Positions 26,059 through 36,199 of a stretch of DNA of 64,000 nt are shown here, in pieces. Made by a program: the position numbers and the translations under genes. Below the pieces are notes generated by a model. The model had not been told where the DNA came from and did not search any database. It was given only the letters and a program-made list of their open reading frames with translations. How positions within the stretch are numbered: the first letter of the stretch is position 1; every line of letters starts with the position of its first letter. This DNA is from Escherichia coli (lineage in GTDB: Bacteria > Pseudomonadota > Gammaproteobacteria > Enterobacterales > Enterobacteriaceae), in the NCBI RefSeq assembly GCF_003790525.1, contig NZ_CP033635.1, one strand, 5' to 3'.

Positions 26059-26204
26059 ACGTATTCGCTCAGGCAGGGGGCGCTGGTTGGGAACTCAACG
26101 TTGGCATGGTTTCGCTGCTCTTGTGTAGATGTGTTGCAGTTATTTGCGACATTCCGCCGGAGTAGCGGAACTATGGAAAACGGCAATTGGCGCTCTTATC
26201 CCTT

Positions 26205-26236
26205 AGCTTTGTAAGGCTTAATTTTGGTAGAATGGG
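26205..26236 (+). promoter_or_regulatory. Candidate sigma70 promoter with extended -10 (TGgTAGAAT) for the AT-rich two-gene module
   Basis: TGGTAGAAT at 26225-26233 seen directly; the -35 is weak (TTGTAA or TTAGCT with non-ideal spacing). Confidence 0.35.
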
Positions 26237-26264
26237 GAATCGTTTAACGGAAAAAAACAATCAG

Positions 26265-26759
26265 ATGATTTCTTTTCTATCCGATGAATTTGAGGAATTT
26301 CCGCAGGGAGATTTTTTAAATCATCTCTATAGGTTTTCGGTAGACCATCATCATTTTATCGTGATATTTAGCCCTATTGATATTAGCGATGCGGAGTACC
26401 ATCAATACCGTAGCGAGGAAGTTGGATTTGAAATCCCAACTAATTGTTTTGATGTGAAATTTGATAGGCAAGAAAACTTTGATAGTGGTAACTTTTACAT
26501 GCCCCCCGCCGCAACTGAATGCTCGAGGCGCAGACGCTTTACTGATGAACTCGCAGAGGCGCTAGCAACGATTATTGAAAAGCATTACATCATTTATCAT
26601 GCCAGGGCTTATCTTGCCATCGCAGAGAATGACAAGTTGAAACGTTACTATGACCGGATTTTACACAATGCCCCGGCTAATGTAGCATATAGAGTAATCA
26701 AAGATGTTGGAGAGGAGGAACGAGGTTATGCCATACAAACCGAATGTTTCCGAACTTAA
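26265..26759 (+). CDS. Hypothetical acidic protein (~164 aa from ATG 26265; alternative starts 26232 or 26187), no recognised domain
   Basis: Single long ORF in an AT-rich (~40% GC by eye) segment; MISFLSDEFEEFPQGDFLNHLYRF...; no motif I recognise; start ambiguous, weak RBS. Confidence 0.6.
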   Translation: MISFLSDEFEEFPQGDFLNHLYRFSVDHHHFIVIFSPIDISDAEYHQYRSEEVGFEIPTNCFDVKFDRQENFDSGNFYMPPAATECSRRRRFTDELAEALATIIEKHYIIYHARAYLAIAENDKLKRYYDRILHNAPANVAYRVIKDVGEEERGYAIQTECFRT

Positions 26760-26874
26760 GAAAATGACTGTTGCAGAGCGCAAGAAAGAAGCCATGCGCC
26801 AGCTTAAAGCATCCTTTGAGCGCGCCAGCATTGAAGGGACTTTGCATAAACGCTCTGCAAAGTCTGTTGCGTAA
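26728..26874 (+). CDS. Hypothetical small basic protein (48 aa), overlaps the 3' end of the preceding ORF by 32 nt in another frame
   Basis: Strong RBS GAGGAGG 7-13 nt upstream of ATG 26728; MPYKPNVSELKKMTVAERKKEAMRQLKASFERASIEGTLHKRSAKSVA; below the ORF-track length cutoff, found by reading. Confidence 0.5.
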   Translation: MPYKPNVSELKKMTVAERKKEAMRQLKASFERASIEGTLHKRSAKSVA

Positions 26875-26888
26875 TGAAAGATTTCAAT

Positions 26889-26914
26889 AACCCGCTGCGG
26901 CGGGCCTTTTTTTG
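26889..26914. terminator. Rho-independent terminator 15 nt after the small ORF (possibly bidirectional, facing the convergent VWA gene)
   Basis: cccgctgcggcgggcctttttttg: GC stem plus T7 run. Confidence 0.75.
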
Positions 26915-27095
26915 CCCTCAGAAAATCCCCTCTGACCTGCCTCAGGGATTATATACAACCTTCAGTTAATTAGCTGCGCACCATACGCGGCCCGAGCCTT
27001 ATCGCCTTGTTCAAATTCGACAATTCGTCGGCCAATTTCCCCGAACGTCGCGGTGCTAAGTACCGTATCCGTCCGGGCGTATCCGGCCAGAATTT

Positions 27096-28265
27096 TCAGG
27101 CGGTTTCTCTTGCTGTCACTACGCCATTTTGCGCAGCCCACAGATTCACATCTTCCTTACGAATGGCGGCGGCCATCATGCCGGGGAATAAATCTGGGGT
27201 ACAGGCAAAGGAGGGAATACCCATGGCGGCGAGTTTTCCTGCCAGTGACCGGTCGTAAAACGGCGCACCTTCATCGCTTAAGGCCAGCAGGGTAACCACC
27301 TGTACGCCGGACTGAATCAACTCACTGGCGCGTTGCAACAGATTGCGTTCCACCCCGCCTTCGTAGAGGTCGGAAATCAGCACCAGAATGGTATTGCGCG
27401 GATCGCGAATCAAAGACTGGCAGTAGCCCACCGCGCGGTTGATGTCGGTGCCGCCACCCAGCTGTACGCCAAACAGCAGCTCTACCGGATCGTCGAGCTT
27501 CTCTGTCATATCAACGACTGCGGTGTCGAAAACCACCAGATGCGTTTTTACCGCCGGGAGCGATGCCATTACTGCGCCAAAAATACTGGAATAGACCACC
27601 GAGGAGGCCATCGACCCACTCTGGTCGATACATAAAATGATCTCCTTTTGCGTGCGTTGAGACTTGCGCCCGTAGCCGATCAGCGTTTCAGGAACAATAC
27701 TTTTATACTCTTCCTGCCAGTGGCGCAGGTTGGCGCGAATGGTGCGCTGCCAGTCAATTTCCGCGTGGCGCGGGCGACGATTACGTACCGCACGATTAAG
27801 AGCGCCGCTTACCGCGCTACGCATTGGCTCTTCAAGCTGTTTCATCAATTGCTCGACAACTTTACGCACCACAAGCCTGGCGGTTTCTTTGGTTTTGGCC
27901 GGAATTACGCCATTCAGCGACATCAGCGTGGAGACCAGATGAACATCAGGCTGGACGTTTGCCAGCATCTCCGGCTCCAGCAACATACTGTGCAAATTAA
28001 GACGTTCAAAGGCGTCTTTTTGCATCACCTGAACCACAGAAGAAGGGAAATACTGGCGAATATCACCCAGCCAGCGAGCGACTTTGGGTGACGATCCACC
28101 CGTGCCGCCGCGTAATCCATGTTTACCCTCTGGCTGATACAGCGCCGCCAGCGCGGCATCAATCGCGGACTCTCTGGCATCCAGCGCCACGTTACAGGCA
28201 TTGTCGGCATCTTCTCCAAGGATCAGACGCCAGCGGCGCAGCCGTTCCATTTCGTTACTCGACAT
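27096..28265 (-). CDS. von Willebrand factor A (VWA) domain protein with complete MIDAS motif (389 aa); fifth gene of novel operon
   Basis: DQSGSM (DxSxS), GGGTD and LISDLYEGG motifs seen in the translation; start overlaps the upstream gene's stop by 11 nt. Confidence 0.85.
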   Translation of the reverse strand: MSSNEMERLRRWRLILGEDADNACNVALDARESAIDAALAALYQPEGKHGLRGGTGGSSPKVARWLGDIRQYFPSSVVQVMQKDAFERLNLHSMLLEPEMLANVQPDVHLVSTLMSLNGVIPAKTKETARLVVRKVVEQLMKQLEEPMRSAVSGALNRAVRNRRPRHAEIDWQRTIRANLRHWQEEYKSIVPETLIGYGRKSQRTQKEIILCIDQSGSMASSVVYSSIFGAVMASLPAVKTHLVVFDTAVVDMTEKLDDPVELLFGVQLGGGTDINRAVGYCQSLIRDPRNTILVLISDLYEGGVERNLLQRASELIQSGVQVVTLLALSDEGAPFYDRSLAGKLAAMGIPSFACTPDLFPGMMAAAIRKEDVNLWAAQNGVVTARETA

Positions 28266-30504
28266 GATTTTCCCTTTCGTGTGGTGGCAAAGCCAGAATG
28301 CGGCGCAGTAGCGGCAGCATTAACGCGGCACGCTGTTCATCCCATATACCGCTGGTCTCTTCTTGCTGCGCGACACGCTCGCCCTGCGCGGCGCGTTCGC
28401 CTAACTGGCGGCGTTCCGGGCTGGAAAAACGGCCGAATGTCCGCCGCAGCATCGGCAGGATCCGGGTGAAGTGATTGTCGTTCAGGCCGCTTAGCCAGGC
28501 ATCGATCAACTGCCATAATTCGCTATTGTGCAGTAGCACCATCGCGCTGTCGTTGAGGAAACCTTCCGCCCATGCGGCACTTTCCGCCGGGGGATTGGCT
28601 GGCGATAGCGCCAGGTTCATCAGCGTGCTGATCCGTTCTGTCGTTAACGTTTGCAGATCAAACAACAGGCGCGTCGCCGTTCCGCGAAGCAGCGCGTGTG
28701 CGGTACTGCCCTCTGCCAGCACCATCAACGCCTGCAACCAGCCCGCCAATAGATCTTCGTTATCCAGCAACCGCAGCGCGGCGTGGGCGTCGATAACTTT
28801 TTCTCTCATACTGGCGGCGCTGTCGTCGTTGAGCGCCGAACAGGCTCCGGGTAGGGCGATGGCGGCGCGCGGGGCGAGGCTCATCAGTACCTGCATTACC
28901 ATACCAGAGTCGGTCTGGCGCACGTTGCCGTAGCGGACAATCGCCACCAGTGGTGCCAGGGCTTCCAGCAACTGTTCGATATTGCCCTGAGTGGCAGCCA
29001 GTGATTCCAGTGTATTGGCGATGGGGGCAATCGCGGTCTGTAAATCGGCCAGTAGCACCTGTTGGATAAGCTTTGCCAGTTCCGGCAGCGTGCTGGCGTA
29101 TTGCGCCCTCACAATGGCATAGCGGGAGCTGGCCTGCTCAATGCTGTTACCCCAACGGCTGGCGGTAATGATGTTGATTGCCAGTGCCGGTTCCCAGCGC
29201 AGCGACCAGACTTCGTGGAACGTCCCTTTGCTGTTATTTCCTTGTCCAGCCAGACGGCCCCAGGAAATGTCGAGTAAGGTCAGGCGATGCAGTAAATGGC
29301 TACGCGCCAGATCGCCGGGTTTGCGCAGATCAAGATCCAGCACTTTTTCGCTGGCTTCTGCCTTCAGGCGCAGCGTTTTTTGCTGTTGCGTAATGTCGCG
29401 TTGGAGCGGCACGACGGGCGTATCATCCGGTACGCTTCCCAGCGCGTCGCCGACAATTAACTTCTGGCGAATCATCTGCATTGGCGCGCTTTCGCCCATA
29501 CACACTACGGTTTGCAGCGCTTCGCAAAGTTCGTCAAGCCCCGGCTGCGGGTGATGGCGCATAATCGCCAGCGTCTGCGCCAGCCGCGCCGCTTCGATAA
29601 TGTGGGCGCTGGAACAGTCGAGATCGGCTTCGCGAAACAGCCTTGCCGCGCGTGACAGCCAGCCGATATCGCGGTGAGAAGCGCCCTGATAACGCCACAG
29701 ATGATCGTACCATTCCGGTGACACCACCCCTGCGCCATAACCGCTGGCGCGGCTTAACGCCTCGTAGCTCCAGGGCGTCCAGGCTGCCGCGACCTTGCAC
29801 TTCGGCAAATTTTTCAGCAGTTCGTTATCATTCTTTGCGGGCGGCAGGTTTTCCAGCGCCGGAACGTGCCACGCACCGCAGACTACCGCGATGCGCGAGA
29901 AGCCCTCTTTTTTCGCCTGACGTAGCGTCTTGCGCATATACGCTTCACGCAGTTGATCTCTGGCTGAGTTTCGGGCTTCGGGAGTTGCCTGGCGTAGGGC
30001 AATCATCGCCTCGCGAATCGCCTCGAACAGAGACAAATCATCTTCGCGTTCCTCTACTCTGTGGCTCCACCAGCTTTCCCCATCGGTGTAACCGGCGGCG
30101 CGGCCCAGCCAGTCCAGCGGATCGCCGTCGGGACTGGCTTCAACGGCATCATCGTCATCGCTCTCTTTTTCGTCATCAAGCGCGAACTGATGACTGATGG
30201 GCAAGTCCATAAAGCGCACGGCGATATTTTGCTCAAAACCATAGCGCAGCGCCTGCCATTCCGGGGAGAACGCCGCAAAGGGGTAAAACGCGGCGTGATG
30301 TGAGTCGTCCGGGGCATAAATCAGTAGCGCGACCGGCGGTTGCATCTGTTCATGCTGCATAAAAGGCAGGATGGATTCGCCGTCGGGCGGCCCTTCCACC
30401 AGCAGGCAGTCGGGCTGTAGCGTCTCCAGCGCCTTTCGCAGGCTGCGCGCGCAGCCAGGGCCATGGTGACGGATGCCAAACAAATGAACGGTTTGTTCAG
30501 TCAT
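28255..30504 (-). CDS. Large hypothetical protein (749 aa), no motif recognised; fourth gene of novel operon
   Basis: Uninterrupted 2.25-kb ORF; AAGG RBS in the 17-nt gap after the AAA+ gene; acidic stretch DDEKESDDDDAVEASPDGD; helical Leu/Ala-rich C-terminal half. Confidence 0.8.
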   Translation of the reverse strand: MTEQTVHLFGIRHHGPGCARSLRKALETLQPDCLLVEGPPDGESILPFMQHEQMQPPVALLIYAPDDSHHAAFYPFAAFSPEWQALRYGFEQNIAVRFMDLPISHQFALDDEKESDDDDAVEASPDGDPLDWLGRAAGYTDGESWWSHRVEEREDDLSLFEAIREAMIALRQATPEARNSARDQLREAYMRKTLRQAKKEGFSRIAVVCGAWHVPALENLPPAKNDNELLKNLPKCKVAAAWTPWSYEALSRASGYGAGVVSPEWYDHLWRYQGASHRDIGWLSRAARLFREADLDCSSAHIIEAARLAQTLAIMRHHPQPGLDELCEALQTVVCMGESAPMQMIRQKLIVGDALGSVPDDTPVVPLQRDITQQQKTLRLKAEASEKVLDLDLRKPGDLARSHLLHRLTLLDISWGRLAGQGNNSKGTFHEVWSLRWEPALAINIITASRWGNSIEQASSRYAIVRAQYASTLPELAKLIQQVLLADLQTAIAPIANTLESLAATQGNIEQLLEALAPLVAIVRYGNVRQTDSGMVMQVLMSLAPRAAIALPGACSALNDDSAASMREKVIDAHAALRLLDNEDLLAGWLQALMVLAEGSTAHALLRGTATRLLFDLQTLTTERISTLMNLALSPANPPAESAAWAEGFLNDSAMVLLHNSELWQLIDAWLSGLNDNHFTRILPMLRRTFGRFSSPERRQLGERAAQGERVAQQEETSGIWDEQRAALMLPLLRRILALPPHERENHVE

Positions 30505-30521
30505 AGTGGTTGCCTTGCTGA

Positions 30522-31616
30522 TTACACAATTTCGCGGCAGGCGCGATAGAGATCGTTCCAGTCGCTGCGCTCTTTGACTATAGTTTCCAGATATTCACGC
30601 CATACCACGTCGTCCTGCACGGGATCTTTTACCACCGCGCCGATAAGGCTTGCGGCGATATCCCGCGGATGTAGCACGCCGTCGCCAAAATGGCCCGCCA
30701 GCGCCATACCGTTGTTGATAACGGAGATCGCCTCCGCGGTGCTGAGAGTACTGGTTGGCGACTTAATTTTCGTTTTGCCGTCAACCGTCAGGCCGTTTCG
30801 CAGTTCGCGGAAGATTTGCACGACTCGCTGGATCTCTTTAAGCGCTGGCGGTTCGGCAGGAAGTGCCAGCGCCTGACCCAGTTCGGCGACGCGGCGAGTG
30901 ACAATGTTAATCTCTTCTTCTTCGCTGGCGGGTACGGGCAAAATGACCGTGTTGAAACGACGTTTAAGTGCGGAAGAAAGCTCGTTAACGCCTTTATCCC
31001 GGTTGTTGGCGGTGGCGATAACGTTAAAGCCGCGCGTCGCCTGGACCTCTTCATTCAGTTCGGGGATAGGCAGCGTTTTTTCCGACAGGATCGTGATCAG
31101 CGTGTCCTGAACATCGGCAGGAATACGCGTCAGCTCTTCTACGCGGGCAATCTGCCCGCGTGCCATCGCCCGCATCAATGGGCTTTCTACCAGCGCCGAA
31201 CGTGACGGACCTTTAGAGAGCAACTCCGCGTAGTTCCAGCCATAACGCATTTGTTCTTCACCGGTGCCTGCGGTGCCCTGAATAATTAACGTTGAGTCGC
31301 CGCTGATGGCAGCCGCCAGATGTTCAGAGACCCAGGATTTCGCAGTGCCGGGTACGCCATACAACAGCAGTGCGCGATCGGTTGCCAGCGTGGCAACGGC
31401 GGTTTCGATAATCCGCCTGTTGCCGATATATTTCGGCGTGACCTCAAAACCATTTTCCAGTTGCCCGCCTAACAGATAAGTAGCAACGGACCACGGAGAA
31501 ATAGCCCAGTTTTCCGGGCGCGGATGAGTATCGTTTTTTTGCAGCTCATCCAGTTCTTCTGCAAATTGTTGTTCGGCATGTCGGCGTAAAACGGCGGCAG
31601 TAGCGGTGGAAGTCAT
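30522..31616 (-). CDS. MoxR-like AAA+ ATPase (364 aa from ATG 31616); third gene of novel operon
   Basis: Walker A LLLYGVPGTAKS (GxPGxAKS, MoxR-type), Walker B-like IARVEELTRIPADVQ, sensor-1 NVIATANN, Arg finger LKRRF; ATG overlaps the upstream stop as ATGA. Confidence 0.85.
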   Translation of the reverse strand: MTSTATAAVLRRHAEQQFAEELDELQKNDTHPRPENWAISPWSVATYLLGGQLENGFEVTPKYIGNRRIIETAVATLATDRALLLYGVPGTAKSWVSEHLAAAISGDSTLIIQGTAGTGEEQMRYGWNYAELLSKGPSRSALVESPLMRAMARGQIARVEELTRIPADVQDTLITILSEKTLPIPELNEEVQATRGFNVIATANNRDKGVNELSSALKRRFNTVILPVPASEEEEINIVTRRVAELGQALALPAEPPALKEIQRVVQIFRELRNGLTVDGKTKIKSPTSTLSTAEAISVINNGMALAGHFGDGVLHPRDIAASLIGAVVKDPVQDDVVWREYLETIVKERSDWNDLYRACREIV

Positions 31617-33217
31617 AAAGTAGTTTCTCCGACAAAAAACGAATGAAGTTGAATTCGGTGCGCCAGCGTGGCGCTCAGGGCAGTAAAGGCTGCCTCGCAA
31701 TAAGGCGTTTGTTGTGCGTCATGCGGCCACTTGTCAATGACATCATTGAGGACTTCGGGGGCCAGCAGGCAGGCGAAATCACTCATCACATGGCGCAGGG
31801 CGTAGTCAAAGCGCGCGGAATCATGTTTCACCCAACGGTGCAGCTCCGTGACCATTTGCTGGCTCAGGCGCAGGCTAAAGAGCGACGCATCCAGCGGTAA
31901 CAGGGCGATGTAGCGTTGTAAATGTTCGCCGCCCATTACCGAGAACAGTAACGTCAACACTGGCTCGTGTTCTTCTACGGGCAGGCATTGCAGAAGCTCA
32001 AAGGCGTTAATCTTCACGCCAGCAGGGGAATGAATGCTTATTCCGACGGGGAGTAGGGCGAGGAATGCCTGCGCCCACTGTGGATTTTTTTCGCGCAGGA
32101 CGGCGTGATACCAGGCGCGCAGTAGCGCCTCCTGCCAGTCGGTTTTCCCGGCCCAGCGCAGCAGTTCAACGGGGGTAGCCTGCAGTTGCGTTTGCCACCA
32201 GTCGAGCGGAACCGCTGCAACTATCTGATACAGCCACCATGCGCGCTGGCCCAACTTTTCGCCTTTGGGCTTAGTTTCTTCCAGCGCATCGGCCTTCCAC
32301 TCTGGTAAGAACGCCTCCGGGGCATCAAGGGCGACGCGCAGCATTTTTTCTTTGCCGGATAAGCCTTTTAGCCTTTCAAGTAAGGTCTCAGGAGCGGGGG
32401 ATGAACTGAGCAACGGCGCTAACCGAGACTTCATGCGCGAGATCCAGGCGCTTTCCGGCAGACAACACAGTAACCGTGCCGCAGTTTGCCGCACCTCTTT
32501 GCTGCGATCGGATAATGTCTGTTCCAGAAAGGCTTCGTCGTGTTGGGAGATCCCCACTTCCAGCACAGCCAGCAGCTGTGCGCGTTCGCGGGCATCCAGC
32601 GAACTCATCTCCTGCGCCAGCCGATCGCGACCCTGTTCCGGGGCGCGAATGCGCATTTGCGTCAGATATTGCAGACGCTGTTCGGACGTGCCGTGCAGCC
32701 ACATTTCTTCATCCAGCGGAGCGTCAGTGGAGGCGAGAACATAGCCCCAATCGGCGTTGATTTGCGCCAGCCAGCACCCGCGAGCGCCCAGAACATTGGA
32801 CAGGATGCCGCGTAGAGATGGCTTTTGCGCTCCATAATTCAGCAATGCTGGTAACAGCAGGGGCGGAGGAAGAAGTTGACGACGGACCAATAGATCAAGC
32901 GCCGACCACAGCAACCGCGGCGGTCCTTCTGACAGCAGCAGATGCAGCAGTCCCGCAAAAGCCGGGTTGTTTATTGGCTCGGCATTTTCTTTATCGATTT
33001 CCGGCAGCGGTGCGGGGTCAATCGCCTGCGGCACCCAGCCAGCCAGATGGCAGAGCGCCAGAACGCCCGCCGAGCGCAGTAGCTGTTGCTCTGCGGATGT
33101 GTTATTCGCCAGTTCAGACAGTAACAGCCCAATCTCACTTTGCGACGCCGACGGTGTAAACGCTTTTTTGTCTGTGCCGAGTAGCGCTGTGCGGGTTAAA
33201 TTTTGCCATTCGTTCAT
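31613..33217 (-). CDS. Hypothetical alpha-helical Leu-rich protein (534 aa from ATG 33217; 541 aa if 33238); second gene of novel operon
   Basis: Long ORF; ATG at 33217 forms an ATGA overlap with the SWIM gene stop; Leu/Ala/Trp-rich repeat-like sequence; no catalytic motif recognised. Confidence 0.8.
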   Translation of the reverse strand: MNEWQNLTRTALLGTDKKAFTPSASQSEIGLLLSELANNTSAEQQLLRSAGVLALCHLAGWVPQAIDPAPLPEIDKENAEPINNPAFAGLLHLLLSEGPPRLLWSALDLLVRRQLLPPPLLLPALLNYGAQKPSLRGILSNVLGARGCWLAQINADWGYVLASTDAPLDEEMWLHGTSEQRLQYLTQMRIRAPEQGRDRLAQEMSSLDARERAQLLAVLEVGISQHDEAFLEQTLSDRSKEVRQTAARLLCCLPESAWISRMKSRLAPLLSSSPAPETLLERLKGLSGKEKMLRVALDAPEAFLPEWKADALEETKPKGEKLGQRAWWLYQIVAAVPLDWWQTQLQATPVELLRWAGKTDWQEALLRAWYHAVLREKNPQWAQAFLALLPVGISIHSPAGVKINAFELLQCLPVEEHEPVLTLLFSVMGGEHLQRYIALLPLDASLFSLRLSQQMVTELHRWVKHDSARFDYALRHVMSDFACLLAPEVLNDVIDKWPHDAQQTPYCEAAFTALSATLAHRIQLHSFFVGETTL

Positions 33218-34536
33218 TGTGCGCCTCCGGTTGCCCAAATGACGCTACCGGCAAGCCAGGCGCTACAGGGCGTCAGCTGCTGACCATCCCATTCCCCCAT
33301 TAGCATAAACGGCGCGCCGCCGCTGGCCGCCAGTAACCGCCAACCCTCGTCCGACGACAGGTGCGTCGGTAAGTGCTGGCCCTGTGTCGAGACGAATCGC
33401 CAGCCGCTCTCGTGCGGGTAAATCAATATTTCGCTTACTCGCAGCGGCAGAGGCCATTGCCAGGGATTCGCGCTAAGCCGCTGCGCCATGTCATGCAGCG
33501 CGTCCGGGAGGGGTAATTCTGCAAGCGGGAATCTTTCACCGCGGGTAAACGGCTCCACAACCCGCGCCCGTAGCGGTGATGCGCCAGGGAAAAAGGCAAG
33601 CGCGCCCTGGCAGACTTGCCCGGTGATAAAGTGCTGGGGAAAGTTTTTACTACCGTGTGAATAGTCCAGCAGTAGCGCGGTGCGGTGGCTCTTTTCTCCG
33701 TACAGCCAGACCCGGCGTCGCCACAGATTATTCCCTTCTTGCGCGCTTTGACCTAAGACCTGCCAGTTATCGAGGCAGGTTAATCCGTCAGTGACGTCGT
33801 GTTTATCCGGGGGTATTCCCAATGCCGCATGGAGATCGCTAAGTTGTGCCGGGGATAACATTTGTTGCTGGCGCCAGGCGTCAATAATCAGCTGTAGCTG
33901 CCCCAGTTCTTTGCACAGGCTCGATGGCCATACCTCGGCGGTAGTAAAATGAGTGGTCAGATTGTTCAGGCGAGCGGCAATTCCCGGTAGTTGGGCGTCG
34001 ACCATGCGGGCGGCGATCCCGGCAAAAGGCAACTGTTGTGCAGAGATCTGCGCCAGACCGTGGCGGATCAGGTCGTGCATCCACTGTTCGAGGAAATCCA
34101 GCCCCGCCGTCATTTTTTGGTTGCGTGCCGCTTCCCGTTTGGCGGCAGCCTGCGGGTCGGCAGCTTTTGCCTCAGCCTGCTCTTTCTTCTCTTCTTTGCG
34201 AACCGCCCGCTGCTGGCGCGAGGTTAGCCACTCGCTTACCCATTCCGGCGGCTCGCCAGCGGTGAAACTTGCGGTGTGTTGCACCTGGAGAAAAAGCAAC
34301 GCAAGGCTATGTTTACAGGGGAATTTACGGCTGGGGCAGGAACATTTACAGGCCAGATCCTGTCTGTCGATTCGTACCTGATAAGGGCGGGAGCCGCTAC
34401 CTTTACACTCTCCCCAGAAGGCAGCCTCGCTATATCCGAGCGTCGGCCATTTTGCGGGAGCAACCAGGCCACGAGCCGCTTTAACCGAGGCGTCATCGGG
34501 CGCCAGGGCTTGCACTGATTCAACGGTCAGTTCCAT
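33214..34536 (-). CDS. SWIM zinc-finger domain protein (440 aa); first gene of novel operon
   Basis: CxCxnCxH signature at residues 63-76 (ACKCSCPSRKFPCKHSLALLF); first ORF downstream of gltD on the same strand. Confidence 0.85.
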   Translation of the reverse strand: MELTVESVQALAPDDASVKAARGLVAPAKWPTLGYSEAAFWGECKGSGSRPYQVRIDRQDLACKCSCPSRKFPCKHSLALLFLQVQHTASFTAGEPPEWVSEWLTSRQQRAVRKEEKKEQAEAKAADPQAAAKREAARNQKMTAGLDFLEQWMHDLIRHGLAQISAQQLPFAGIAARMVDAQLPGIAARLNNLTTHFTTAEVWPSSLCKELGQLQLIIDAWRQQQMLSPAQLSDLHAALGIPPDKHDVTDGLTCLDNWQVLGQSAQEGNNLWRRRVWLYGEKSHRTALLLDYSHGSKNFPQHFITGQVCQGALAFFPGASPLRARVVEPFTRGERFPLAELPLPDALHDMAQRLSANPWQWPLPLRVSEILIYPHESGWRFVSTQGQHLPTHLSSDEGWRLLAASGGAPFMLMGEWDGQQLTPCSAWLAGSVIWATGGAQ

Positions 34537-34649
34537 TACAATTCTCTATTGGCGTGGGGAAATCGATGGGGTCAAGGAGGCGTTAAGCAAAGCAGGAGGA
34601 GACTGTTTTCCGTAACAGCGTATTGCGCGTCCATCGCAAATTTGTAGTG

Positions 34650-34679
34650 AGTATAGCGGGCGGTAAATTCAGGAAACAA
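34650..34679 (-). promoter_or_regulatory. Candidate sigma70 promoter for the five-gene operon (-35 TTGTTT, 18-bp spacer, -10 TATACT on minus strand)
   Basis: Hexamers read on the reverse complement ~115-140 nt upstream of the SWIM start codon; heuristic only. Confidence 0.3.
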
Positions 34680-34721
34680 TGGCGGATAGCGGAAAGTGTA
34701 GTTTTTCGGAAAAAGATAACT

Positions 34722-34760
34722 TTATCCCGTGTAACCCGTTTTAAGCGGGCTACACGGGAG
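34722..34760 (-). terminator. Hairpin downstream of gltD (candidate terminator or attenuator)
   Basis: Inverted repeat cccgtgtaacccg / cgggctacacggg 10-45 nt after the gltD stop; the trailing U-tract on the minus strand is interrupted. Confidence 0.4.
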
Positions 34761-34768
34761 GCTGCAAT

Positions 34769-36199
<1,431 letters not shown>

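Follow-up and report, generated by a model that had tools for sequence, protein, structure and literature searches.

Five genes of Escherichia coli SMS-3-5 follow one another so closely on the minus strand, from 34536 down to 27096 of the 64,000-nt stretch of DNA analysed here (the window), that the question arises as to what their junctions secure. An earlier note had read the spacing as translational coupling throughout a single polycistronic unit, with an enforced stoichiometry of the kind expected of a multi-subunit machine. Lying as an island between gltD and nanQ, the genes encode, in order, a SWIM protein, a HEAT-like DUF5691 protein, a MoxR-type AAA+ ATPase (AAA_5), a DUF5682 protein and a CoxE-type VWA protein:

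33214..34536, minus strand: gene 1 (RefSeq CDS), SWIM zinc-finger protein, 440 aa, motif CKCSCPSRKFPCKH (Pfam SWIM, E 1.2e-6)
31613..33217, minus strand: gene 2, DUF5691, 534 aa, helical with HEAT repeats (Pfam DUF5691, E 1e-122)
30522..31616, minus strand: gene 3, MoxR-type AAA+ ATPase (AAA_5), 364 aa (Pfam AAA_5, E 1e-38)
28255..30504, minus strand: gene 4, DUF5682 protein, 749 aa, N-terminal TraB/ChaN/erythromycin-esterase-like domain followed by a C-terminal alpha-solenoid
27096..28265, minus strand: gene 5, CoxE-type VWA protein, 389 aa (Pfam VWA_CoxE, E 2.7e-52)

The Pfam domain matches agree with the protein labels given previously (SWIM, helical, AAA+, VWA). The SWIM domain is present in all 30 of 30 relatives of gene 1, and HEAT_2 matches 11 of 24 DUF5691 relatives (best E 2e-4). 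The AAA+ protein carries a Walker A motif (GVPGTAKS), a sensor-1 motif (ATAN) and an RR motif, with a Walker B-like segment, VEELTR, in which E replaces the usual D; it shares 41% identity with E. coli YehL over 350 aa (blastp, E 2e-77), its nearest solved sequences are the midasin AAA modules (E 1e-15) and NorQ (E 5.5e-6), and NCBIfam returned just sub-threshold MadB and GvpN matches for it. The VWA protein, 38% identical to YehP (blastp), has an intact MIDAS motif (DQSGS...GGGTD...SD). Sequence searches for solved structures found none for the SWIM, DUF5691, DUF5682 or VWA proteins.

Read directly on the minus strand, the four junctions measure -4, -4, +17 and -11 nt in gene order:

33217..33214, minus strand: SWIM/DUF5691 ATGA overlap (stop TGA plus start ATG); Shine-Dalgarno (SD) GGAGG at 33228..33224, inside the SWIM coding sequence
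31616..31613, minus strand: DUF5691/AAA+ ATGA stop/start overlap; SD GGAGA at 31630..31626
30521..30505, minus strand: AAA+/DUF5682 spacer of 17 nt, the sole non-overlapping junction; TAA at 30524..30522, AAGG at 30516..30513, ATG at 30504
28265..28255, minus strand: DUF5682/VWA overlap of 11 nt; SD AAGGGA at 28276..28271, VWA ATG at 28265, DUF5682 TAA at 28257..28255

The three overlaps claimed in the earlier note are thus borne out to the nucleotide, as is the 17-nt gap with its AAGG. The standing of that AAGG as a ribosome-binding site is less secure, since its pairing energy is a weak -3.0 kcal/mol, no better than that found at 34% of operon positions. SD strengths within the operon range widely, from -9.5 kcal/mol ahead of DUF5691 (top 0.5% of operon positions) through -6.6 kcal/mol ahead of AAA+ (top 2.5%) to a weak -2.9 kcal/mol ahead of the SWIM gene.

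The start codons on which this geometry depends are identical to those called by RefSeq/PGAP in E. coli SMS-3-5. Independent gene calls yield -4, -4, +16 and -11 in Klebsiella huaxiensis, where the DUF5682/VWA geometry is identical, and -4, -4, +19 and -16 on a metagenomic enterobacterial contig. The alternative in-frame starts (TTG 33238, TTG 31700 and ATG 28250) have an anti-SD pairing weaker than that of the annotated starts; for VWA, the values are -5.3 kcal/mol at ATG 28265 versus -2.5 kcal/mol at ATG 28250. Mis-called starts were consequently rejected as an explanation, with PGAP, the calls made independently in relatives, N-terminal conservation, homology and SD energies all concurring. 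ATG 28250 stays as a weaker alternative start for VWA, from which the junction would be a +4 gap instead of a -11 overlap. Between E. coli and K. huaxiensis, the cassette genes have reached a dS of 1.0-1.4, and junction geometry is nevertheless preserved; dN/dS values of 0.035-0.27 place all five genes under purifying selection.

An A preceding a TGA stop is, in itself, not rare. The overlaps nonetheless go beyond chance, given that their ATGs open long conserved reading frames, that the geometry is kept at high dS, and that overlaps recur at the same three junctions across phyla. They are genuine yet ordinary, ATGA being the default bacterial operon junction, and the RefSeq annotation already implies them. 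In the rest of the window, a hand count from the annotation gives 43 co-directional gene pairs, 8 of them overlapping and 21 at ≤20 nt; 4-nt overlaps account for 5 of the 43 (kdsC-lptC, rapZ-npr, mtgA-elbB, nanQ-nanK and nanK-nanE). A published E. coli census also finds -4 to be the commonest configuration (PMC10666635).

The complete five-gene island occurs in 33 of 5,426 complete E. coli genomes, and homology to K-12 stops at 34769 on the gltD side; the E. coli operon is rare and horizontally acquired. Among 100,044 species-representative genomes, relatives of the cassette turned up in at least 591 sequence stretches. Of 80 loci fetched, 51 keep the five-gene order across very diverse phyla (Proteobacteria, Cyanobacteria, Chloroflexota, Acidobacteriota, Bacteroidota, Verrucomicrobiota and Planctomycetota), the remainder being mostly broken by contig ends. 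The flanks of the cassette loci hold no sixth conserved gene, and no gene fusions among the five proteins occur in the 80 loci. The spread is patchy and island-like, with high GC and with neighbours that differ between loci. A known anti-phage defence system was rejected as an identity for the cassette, the PADLOC-DB v2 models being negative for all five proteins: AAA+ gave only sub-threshold matches to the IetA P-loop (E 1e-3), and the other four proteins gave none. The literature searched made no mention of DUF5682, DUF5691, PF18934, PF18944 or yehLMPQ.

Across these 80 loci, in which starts were called under homology guidance and are approximate, overlaps cluster at three of the four junctions. 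SWIM/DUF5691 overlaps in 27/56 loci, DUF5691/AAA+ in 24/61 and DUF5682/VWA in 36/61 (pooled, 87/178), whereas AAA+/DUF5682 does so in 4/62 (Fisher p 3e-10 against the other three, without phylogenetic correction), with a median gap of about +20. The modal value is -4 both at SWIM/DUF5691 (20 of 59 relatives) and at DUF5691/AAA+ (23 of 61), while DUF5682/VWA stands at -4 in 25 loci, at -8 in 6 and at -11 in 3. Not every member of the cassette family has tight junctions. Bilophila has junctions of +9, +364 and +126, the 364 nt lying between AAA+ and DUF5682; the latter gap measures 141-228 nt in many loci, with other DNA inserted there in some genomes, and insertions of >500 nt interrupt junctions in some loci. 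From this pattern, we infer that the AAA+/DUF5682 junction would constitute a conserved uncoupled point.

How far such junctions couple translation can be gauged against the termination-reinitiation pairs of Huber et al. (2019, 2023; PMC6728339, PMC10666635), whose cassette counterparts likewise plausibly encode interacting proteins; coupling is read here from geometry alone. Strict coupling, i.e., dependence of downstream on upstream translation, was found for 13 of the 14 overlapping pairs examined, with an SD contribution that varied gene by gene (PMC6728339). The range predictive of reinitiation extends from -8 to +10 nt; distances of +11 to +20 were set aside since coupling there is gene-specific, and a distance of 38 nt lowered reinitiation by 80-100%, in keeping with a steep distance dependence (PMC10666635). 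SWIM/DUF5691 and DUF5691/AAA+ fall squarely in the ATGA / TGATG class (-4 / -1) and are canonical, with the SD inside the upstream gene. The -11 overlap of DUF5682/VWA is of the same kind, though longer, lying outside the -8 to +6 core class and just beyond -8, and the +17 AAA+/DUF5682 spacer falls in the gene-specific range. The claim of coupling throughout is therefore overstated: coupling is likely at the two ATGA junctions, which belong to the class found strictly coupled in 13/14 cases, and the claim falters at the +17 junction, given its distance, its weak SD and its rarity of overlap. As overlaps recur at three junctions and almost never at AAA+/DUF5682, the evidence points to one operon that would comprise two tightly coupled blocks, SWIM-DUF5691-AAA+ and DUF5682-VWA.

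The most serious alternative is that genome compaction or stop-codon drift gave rise to the overlaps incidentally, each cistron of a common mRNA being initiated from its own SD without regard to the others, and coupling playing a minor part. The strong SDs ahead of DUF5691 and AAA+, embedded at -9.5 and -6.6 kcal/mol, could allow independent initiation. Neither are the starts obviously occluded: RNA folds at the four junctions are no more stable than shuffles (z -0.45, -0.75, -0.33 and +1.29), which gives no sign of a sequestered ribosome-binding site forcing coupling, and RNA structure hiding the downstream starts was rejected on these grounds. Independent initiation would also sit well with the gaps, from tens to hundreds of nucleotides, that relatives tolerate at each of the junctions and with the gene-to-gene differences in the role of the SD (PMC6728339). 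However, 13 of the 14 overlapping pairs tested in that study depended strictly on upstream translation, neutral drift would not predict overlaps that cluster at three junctions and are scarce at the fourth, and E. coli and K. huaxiensis still share the exact geometry even though synonymous divergence is saturated. We thus regard independent initiation as unlikely.

Still less probable is the proposal of serial coupling through all five cistrons, by which a multi-subunit machine would be kept at a fixed (equimolar) stoichiometry. The three overlaps and the short spacer speak for it, tight E. coli pairs are enriched 4.5-fold for heteromeric complexes (PMC10666635), and MoxR AAA+ and VWA partners are known to interact, as in RavA-ViaA (PMC3893208). 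Yet for 69.6% of tight pairs no complex is known, and a +17 spacer with a weak SD lies beyond the reliable reinitiation range (PMC10666635). The AAA+/DUF5682 junction is, moreover, non-overlapping family-wide, and the SD strengths within the operon are far from uniform. The ravA-viaA genes themselves overlap by 7 nt, and approximately 350 RavA and 90 ViaA molecules per cell are nevertheless reported (PMC3893208); on this showing, enforced stoichiometry is unsupported, and the earlier claim to that effect is not upheld.

In related systems, e.g., CbbQ-CbbO, the AAA+ ring is a hexamer to which adaptors bind in sub-stoichiometric amounts, which again counts against an equimolar product. The evidence indicates instead that operon overlaps such as these would mark co-expression, not fixed protein ratios.

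Whether the genes share a single transcript was approached through their flanks and interior. Two elements lie upstream of the SWIM gene:

34650..34679, minus strand: candidate operon promoter predicted from the sequence, with TTGTTT at 34679..34674, an 18-nt spacer and TATACT at 34655..34650
34725..34759, minus strand: 14-bp hairpin directly after the gltD stop (dG -26.7 kcal/mol, z -5.2, 0/200 shuffles as stable)

The candidate promoter lies approximately 114 nt upstream of the SWIM ATG and was missed by the consensus scan; its TATACT and the adjoining sequence of E. coli are conserved in K. huaxiensis. The gltD-end hairpin, which is without an adjacent U-tract, may be a transcript-end or stabiliser element dividing gltBD from the island. 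Inside the operon, the consensus scan of the coding strand found no sigma-70-like site except one at the 3' end, and the terminator scan found one weak terminator-like site only, both results being at chance level and neither of them decisive. A single polycistronic unit, as previously proposed, draws good, if indirect, support from the common strand, the three overlaps, a largest E. coli junction of 17 nt, these scans, the order conserved in 51 of 80 loci, the absence of a sixth conserved gene from the flanks and purifying selection on all five genes. That the cluster might instead comprise two or more transcription units (e.g., SWIM-DUF5691-AAA+ and DUF5682-VWA, with an internal promoter), as the family-wide weak link at AAA+/DUF5682 would allow (141-228 nt in many loci, 364 nt in Bilophila, insertions), or be transcribed by read-through from gltBD, made possible by the missing U-tract, is improbable, since the 17-nt spacer in E. 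coli leaves insufficient room for a terminator and a promoter, the AAA+ gene has no sigma-70-like site on its coding strand, the TATACT box shared with K. huaxiensis lies upstream of SWIM, and, of 201 E. coli pairs with mapped transcripts and a spacing of +9 to +12 nt, 194 are transcribed polycistronically (PMC10666635).

As to what the single operon encodes, the least familiar product is DUF5682. Its model was built from a 54-sequence alignment (12 close homologues alone gave a pLDDT of 51), and its N-terminal domain has the fold common to the TraB/PrgY/GumN-ChaN-erythromycin esterase (TIKI) superfamily. Paired GxxH motifs are the defining mark of the TraB/TIKI family. The invariant residues of DUF5682 comprise G10xxH13, E37, R186-E187 and G210xxH213, and its paired GxxH motifs align in register with those of YbaP (hhalign E 0.2). 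A sequence-level link to the TraB family is not significant by that comparison, by Pfam TraB (2 of 54 DUF5682 members matched, best E 0.015) or by a DUF5682 profile search of PDB sequences, which gave no match. Compared to TraB, ChaN and erythromycin esterase, the DUF5682 domain carries a fused solenoid of ~450 aa and sits in a MoxR-VWA operon. This is the first structural assignment for DUF5682, as TraB/ChaN/erythromycin-esterase-like with invariant His and Glu, and, at 27% identity to DUF5682, YehM probably shares it.

The closest relative of the cassette in K-12 is yehL-yehM-yehP-yehQ, with which it has in common the core AAA_5 - DUF5682 - VWA_CoxE in the same order (identities of 41%, 27% and 38%) and matching junction types (yehL-yehM +10, yehM-yehP -8). 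Complement and order are not identical: (i) the SWIM zinc-finger protein present in both is encoded first in the cassette and last in yeh, and it shares only the SWIM motif with YehQ; (ii) the additional DUF5691/HEAT gene of the cassette is absent from yeh (hhalign probability <1%); and (iii) no DUF4132 (YehI-like) gene adjoins the cassette. Homology of the SWIM or DUF5691 proteins to YehQ or YehI was rejected, blastp and hhalign both being negative. With an AAA_5 ATPase related to YehL and an adjoining VWA protein with intact MIDAS, the cassette belongs with the YehL-type MoxR/VWA systems; YehL is a listed subfamily of MoxR AAA+ ATPases in PMC3893208. The same pairing of an AAA_5 ATPase with a MIDAS-intact VWA is seen in RavA-ViaA (whose genes overlap too), NorQ-NorD, CbbQ-CbbO, CoxD-CoxE and midasin/Rea1. 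In contrast to these systems, the cassette has SWIM, DUF5691 and DUF5682 proteins without counterpart there, and no client enzyme (NOR, Rubisco or CODH) is encoded near it.

Taken jointly, these findings are probably best explained by one acquired five-gene operon with two coupled blocks, co-expression without fixed ratios and, by analogy, AAA+/VWA remodelling. DUF5691, AAA+ and VWA would, we infer, probably be translated largely by ribosomes passed on from the upstream cistron, the hand-over taking the form of termination-reinitiation at ATGA or short overlaps, aided by SDs embedded in the upstream coding sequence. DUF5682, with its family-wide non-overlapping junction and weak SD, would be initiated de novo or be partly coupled only. 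Coupling would thus secure co-expression, and probably co-translational assembly, as opposed to fixed ratios. If the analogy to RavA-ViaA, NorQ-NorD, CbbQ-CbbO and midasin holds, the VWA MIDAS domain would let the AAA+ ring take hold of a partner and remodel it. The best candidate for this partner would be DUF5682, which is encoded in cis and joins a TraB/TIKI-like putative hydrolase to a helical solenoid, while the HEAT-like and SWIM proteins would serve as scaffold or sensor subunits.

Ultimately, the coupling observation itself adds little, and the follow-up replaces fixed stoichiometry with co-expression. More tentatively, the cassette might represent a distinct, widespread and uncharacterised ATP-driven machine, in which a midasin-like AAA_5 ring and its MIDAS adaptor control a TraB/TIKI-like hydrolase, encoded as two separately tuned modules. 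Were this possibility true, the break in coupling between AAA+ and DUF5682 would separate a sensor/motor module from an effector/adaptor module. A role in conflict or stress response would be in keeping with the patchy, island-like distribution (33/5,426 E. coli genomes, high GC, varied neighbours), and the invariant His and Glu residues of DUF5682 provide concrete targets for mutagenesis. The five genes thereby emerge as a self-contained mobile cassette, kin to the long-unexplained yehLMPQ genes of E. coli.

Direct reading of the minus strand yields the same four junctions as the earlier note described, and RefSeq places the starts of all five genes exactly where we read them. The window aligns to the chromosome of E. 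coli SMS-3-5 with 100% identity. The domain labels also agree with Pfam: SWIM, DUF5691, AAA_5, DUF5682 (E 2e-268), and VWA_CoxE. Alternative in-frame starts at TTG 33238, TTG 31700, and ATG 28250 each show weaker anti-Shine-Dalgarno (anti-SD) pairing than that at the annotated starts.

Junctions of the five-gene operon
33217..33214, minus strand: SWIM/DUF5691, common ATGA, SD-like GGAGG 6 nt upstream
31616..31613, minus strand: DUF5691/AAA+, common ATGA, SD-like GGAGA 9 nt upstream
30524..30522 (TAA) and 30504 (ATG), minus strand: AAA+/DUF5682, 17-nt gap, AAGG within the spacer
28265 (ATG) and 28257..28255 (TAA), minus strand: DUF5682/VWA, 11-nt overlap, AAGGGA at 28276..28271

Strict coupling was found in 13 of 14 overlapping pairs tested (PMC6728339). 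Reinitiation drops steeply with distance, with 80-100% loss at +38 nt; results at +2 and +14 nt were described as varying more and depending on the gene pair, and distances from +11 to +20 were left out as not predictable (PMC10666635). The +17 AAA+/DUF5682 spacer falls within that range, and the anti-SD pairing energy of its AAGG is only -3.0 kcal/mol, a value equalled or bettered at 34% of operon positions; the corresponding energies are -9.5 (DUF5691), -6.6 (AAA+), and -5.3 kcal/mol (VWA). At none of the four junctions does the RNA fold exceed shuffled sequences in stability, and the folds thus give no sign of an occluded start needing an upstream ribosome. Taken together, these data make coupling likely at the three overlapping junctions and doubtful at AAA+/DUF5682, such that "coupling throughout", as first proposed, claims too much. 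The proposal of enforced stoichiometry likewise goes too far. In ravA-viaA, a related MoxR-VWA pair with a 7-nt overlap, PMC3893208 reports ~350 and ~90 molecules per cell for the two proteins despite the gene overlap; tight E. coli pairs are 4.5-fold enriched for heteromeric complexes, but 69.6% of such pairs correspond to no known complex; and SD strengths across the operon span nearly 7 kcal/mol, so equal protein output is not expected.

As a background, 43 co-directional gene pairs in the remainder of the window were counted by hand from annotation tables. Five have 4-nt overlaps (kdsC-lptC, rapZ-npr, mtgA-elbB, nanQ-nanK, and nanK-nanE), 8/43 overlap at all, and 21/43 are spaced by ≤20 nt. 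Against the 8/43 rate, the operon's three overlaps in four junctions (binomial p ~0.02) are thus merely mildly enriched over all co-directional pairs, and are typical, not unusual, for within-operon pairs. In an E. coli census, ATGA (-4) is the most frequent configuration, and 707 of 2,987 co-directional pairs are spaced -8 to +6 (PMC10666635). Overlapping junctions of this kind are routine.

The arrangement of the junctions is a property of the family. DUF5682 relatives are encoded on at least 591 stretches in a scan of species-representative genomes; among 80 loci fetched, the order SWIM-DUF5691-AAA+-DUF5682-VWA is found in 51, with contig ends cutting most others, and a search of the 5-kb flanks for an additional conserved gene returned no family common to >5 loci.

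Junction distances in the fetched loci (approximate, as starts were assigned by homology; minus, overlap; plus, gap)
SWIM/DUF5691: commonest value -4 (20/59); overlap in 27/56 loci
DUF5691/AAA+: commonest value -4 (23/61); overlap in 24/61 loci
AAA+/DUF5682: no value stands out, median gap ~+20; overlap in 4/62 loci
DUF5682/VWA: commonest value -4 (25/65), with -8 in 6 loci and -11 in 3; overlap in 36/61 loci

Overlap at AAA+/DUF5682 (4/62) differs from that at the other three junctions (87/178) with a Fisher p of 3e-10, computed without phylogeny correction. In the distant E. coli paralogue yehL-yehM-yehP, junctions of +10 then -8 match the pattern. From these distances, the E. coli junction pattern is that of the family: two tight blocks with a spacer between them. 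In nine loci (L010, L015, L031, L048, L065, L068, L069, L077, and L079), 0.5-4.3 kb separate DUF5682 from AAA+ or from VWA.

Outside E. coli, the closest DUF5682 (76% identity) comes from Klebsiella huaxiensis, whose cassette (74.5% nucleotide identity) occupies the same site, gltD to the nan genes, with junctions of -4, -4, +16, and -11. With dS of 1.0-1.4 and dN/dS of 0.035-0.27 across all five genes, the junctions have been kept through saturating synonymous change. An enterobacterial metagenomic contig carries the cassette at a different locus (-4, -4, +19, -16). The Bilophila cassette reads -4, +9, +364, and +126. These Bilophila wadsworthia-like contigs (L086/L087) represent an abundant gut version with relaxed junctions (+9, +364, +126), with 600 indexed blocks of the contig collection containing its DUF5682 protein; a regulatory element could fit in the 364-nt AAA+/DUF5682 spacer.

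That the genes form one polycistronic unit, as originally suggested, is a sound reading. A consensus scan inside the operon detected no sigma-70-like site on the coding strand except one at the 3' end, as well as one weak terminator-like site, each a chance-level count.

Features upstream of the operon
34759..34725, minus strand: 14-bp hairpin starting 10 nt past the gltD stop (dG -26.7 kcal/mol, z -5.2)
34650-34679, minus strand: candidate promoter, TATACT 34655..34650 with TTGTTT 18 nt upstream, conserved with K. huaxiensis

Judged by its sequence, the TATACT/TTGTTT site is a candidate operon promoter. The hairpin, whose U-run starts only ~10 nt beyond the stem, is specific to the island and not in K-12 homology. 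A conserved inverted repeat, CTGTTACGGAAAACAG, lies at ~34616-34601 (minus strand) in the putative 5'UTR.

K-12 homology breaks off precisely with the gltD stop (34769) and restarts at nanQ (26059); the island (26060-34768) stands in place of K-12 gltF-yhcA-yhcD-yhcE-yhcF-yhcG. Directly downstream of the VWA gene, a 126-nt yhcG (DUF1016) remnant (26966-27091; 78% identity to K-12; a partial pseudogene in RefSeq) resembles a scar left by the replacement. GC content is 0.56-0.59 in the island versus ~0.51 in the flanks, and the island is strain-variable: of 5,426 complete E. coli genomes, just 33 carry all of it. Between island and nanQ, a 190-aa hypothetical ORF with a small overlapping ORF (26187-26759, plus strand) gave no Pfam match for the 190-aa product, and a terminator-like hairpin lies at 26891-26904 (plus strand).

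PADLOC and NCBIfam searches returned no functional name for the operon proteins, and our literature search found no paper mentioning DUF5682 or DUF5691. The AAA+ protein is 41% identical to E. coli YehL, which names one of seven MoxR subfamilies (PMC3893208); among solved sequences, midasin and NorQ come closest to it. Its Walker B-like segment, ARVEELTR (gene at 30525-31616), has Glu-Glu where Asp-Glu is usual in MoxR ATPases. VWA, with an intact MIDAS motif, is 38% identical to YehP. Similarity of SWIM and DUF5691 to YehQ or YehI is limited to the zinc-finger motif; HEAT repeats are present in DUF5691 relatives. DUF5682 (28255-30504), a family of unknown function in Pfam, is modelled as an N-terminal ~260-aa TraB/ChaN/erythromycin-esterase-like fold followed by an alpha-solenoid. 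Its invariant residues (G10, R12, H13, H14, E37, R186, E187, G210, W212, and H213) align in the same order with E. coli YbaP's GxxH, E, R, and GxxH, though this alignment is not significant (E 0.2). Because YehM is 27% identical to DUF5682, it probably shares this layout of TraB/ChaN/erythromycin-esterase-like N-terminal domain and alpha-solenoid. The cassette is an uncharacterised variant of YehL-type MoxR-VWA systems. If it works like its analogues RavA-ViaA, NorQ-NorD, and midasin, its likely logic would be an AAA+ ring that acts, via a MIDAS adaptor, on the TraB/TIKI-like protein encoded in cis.
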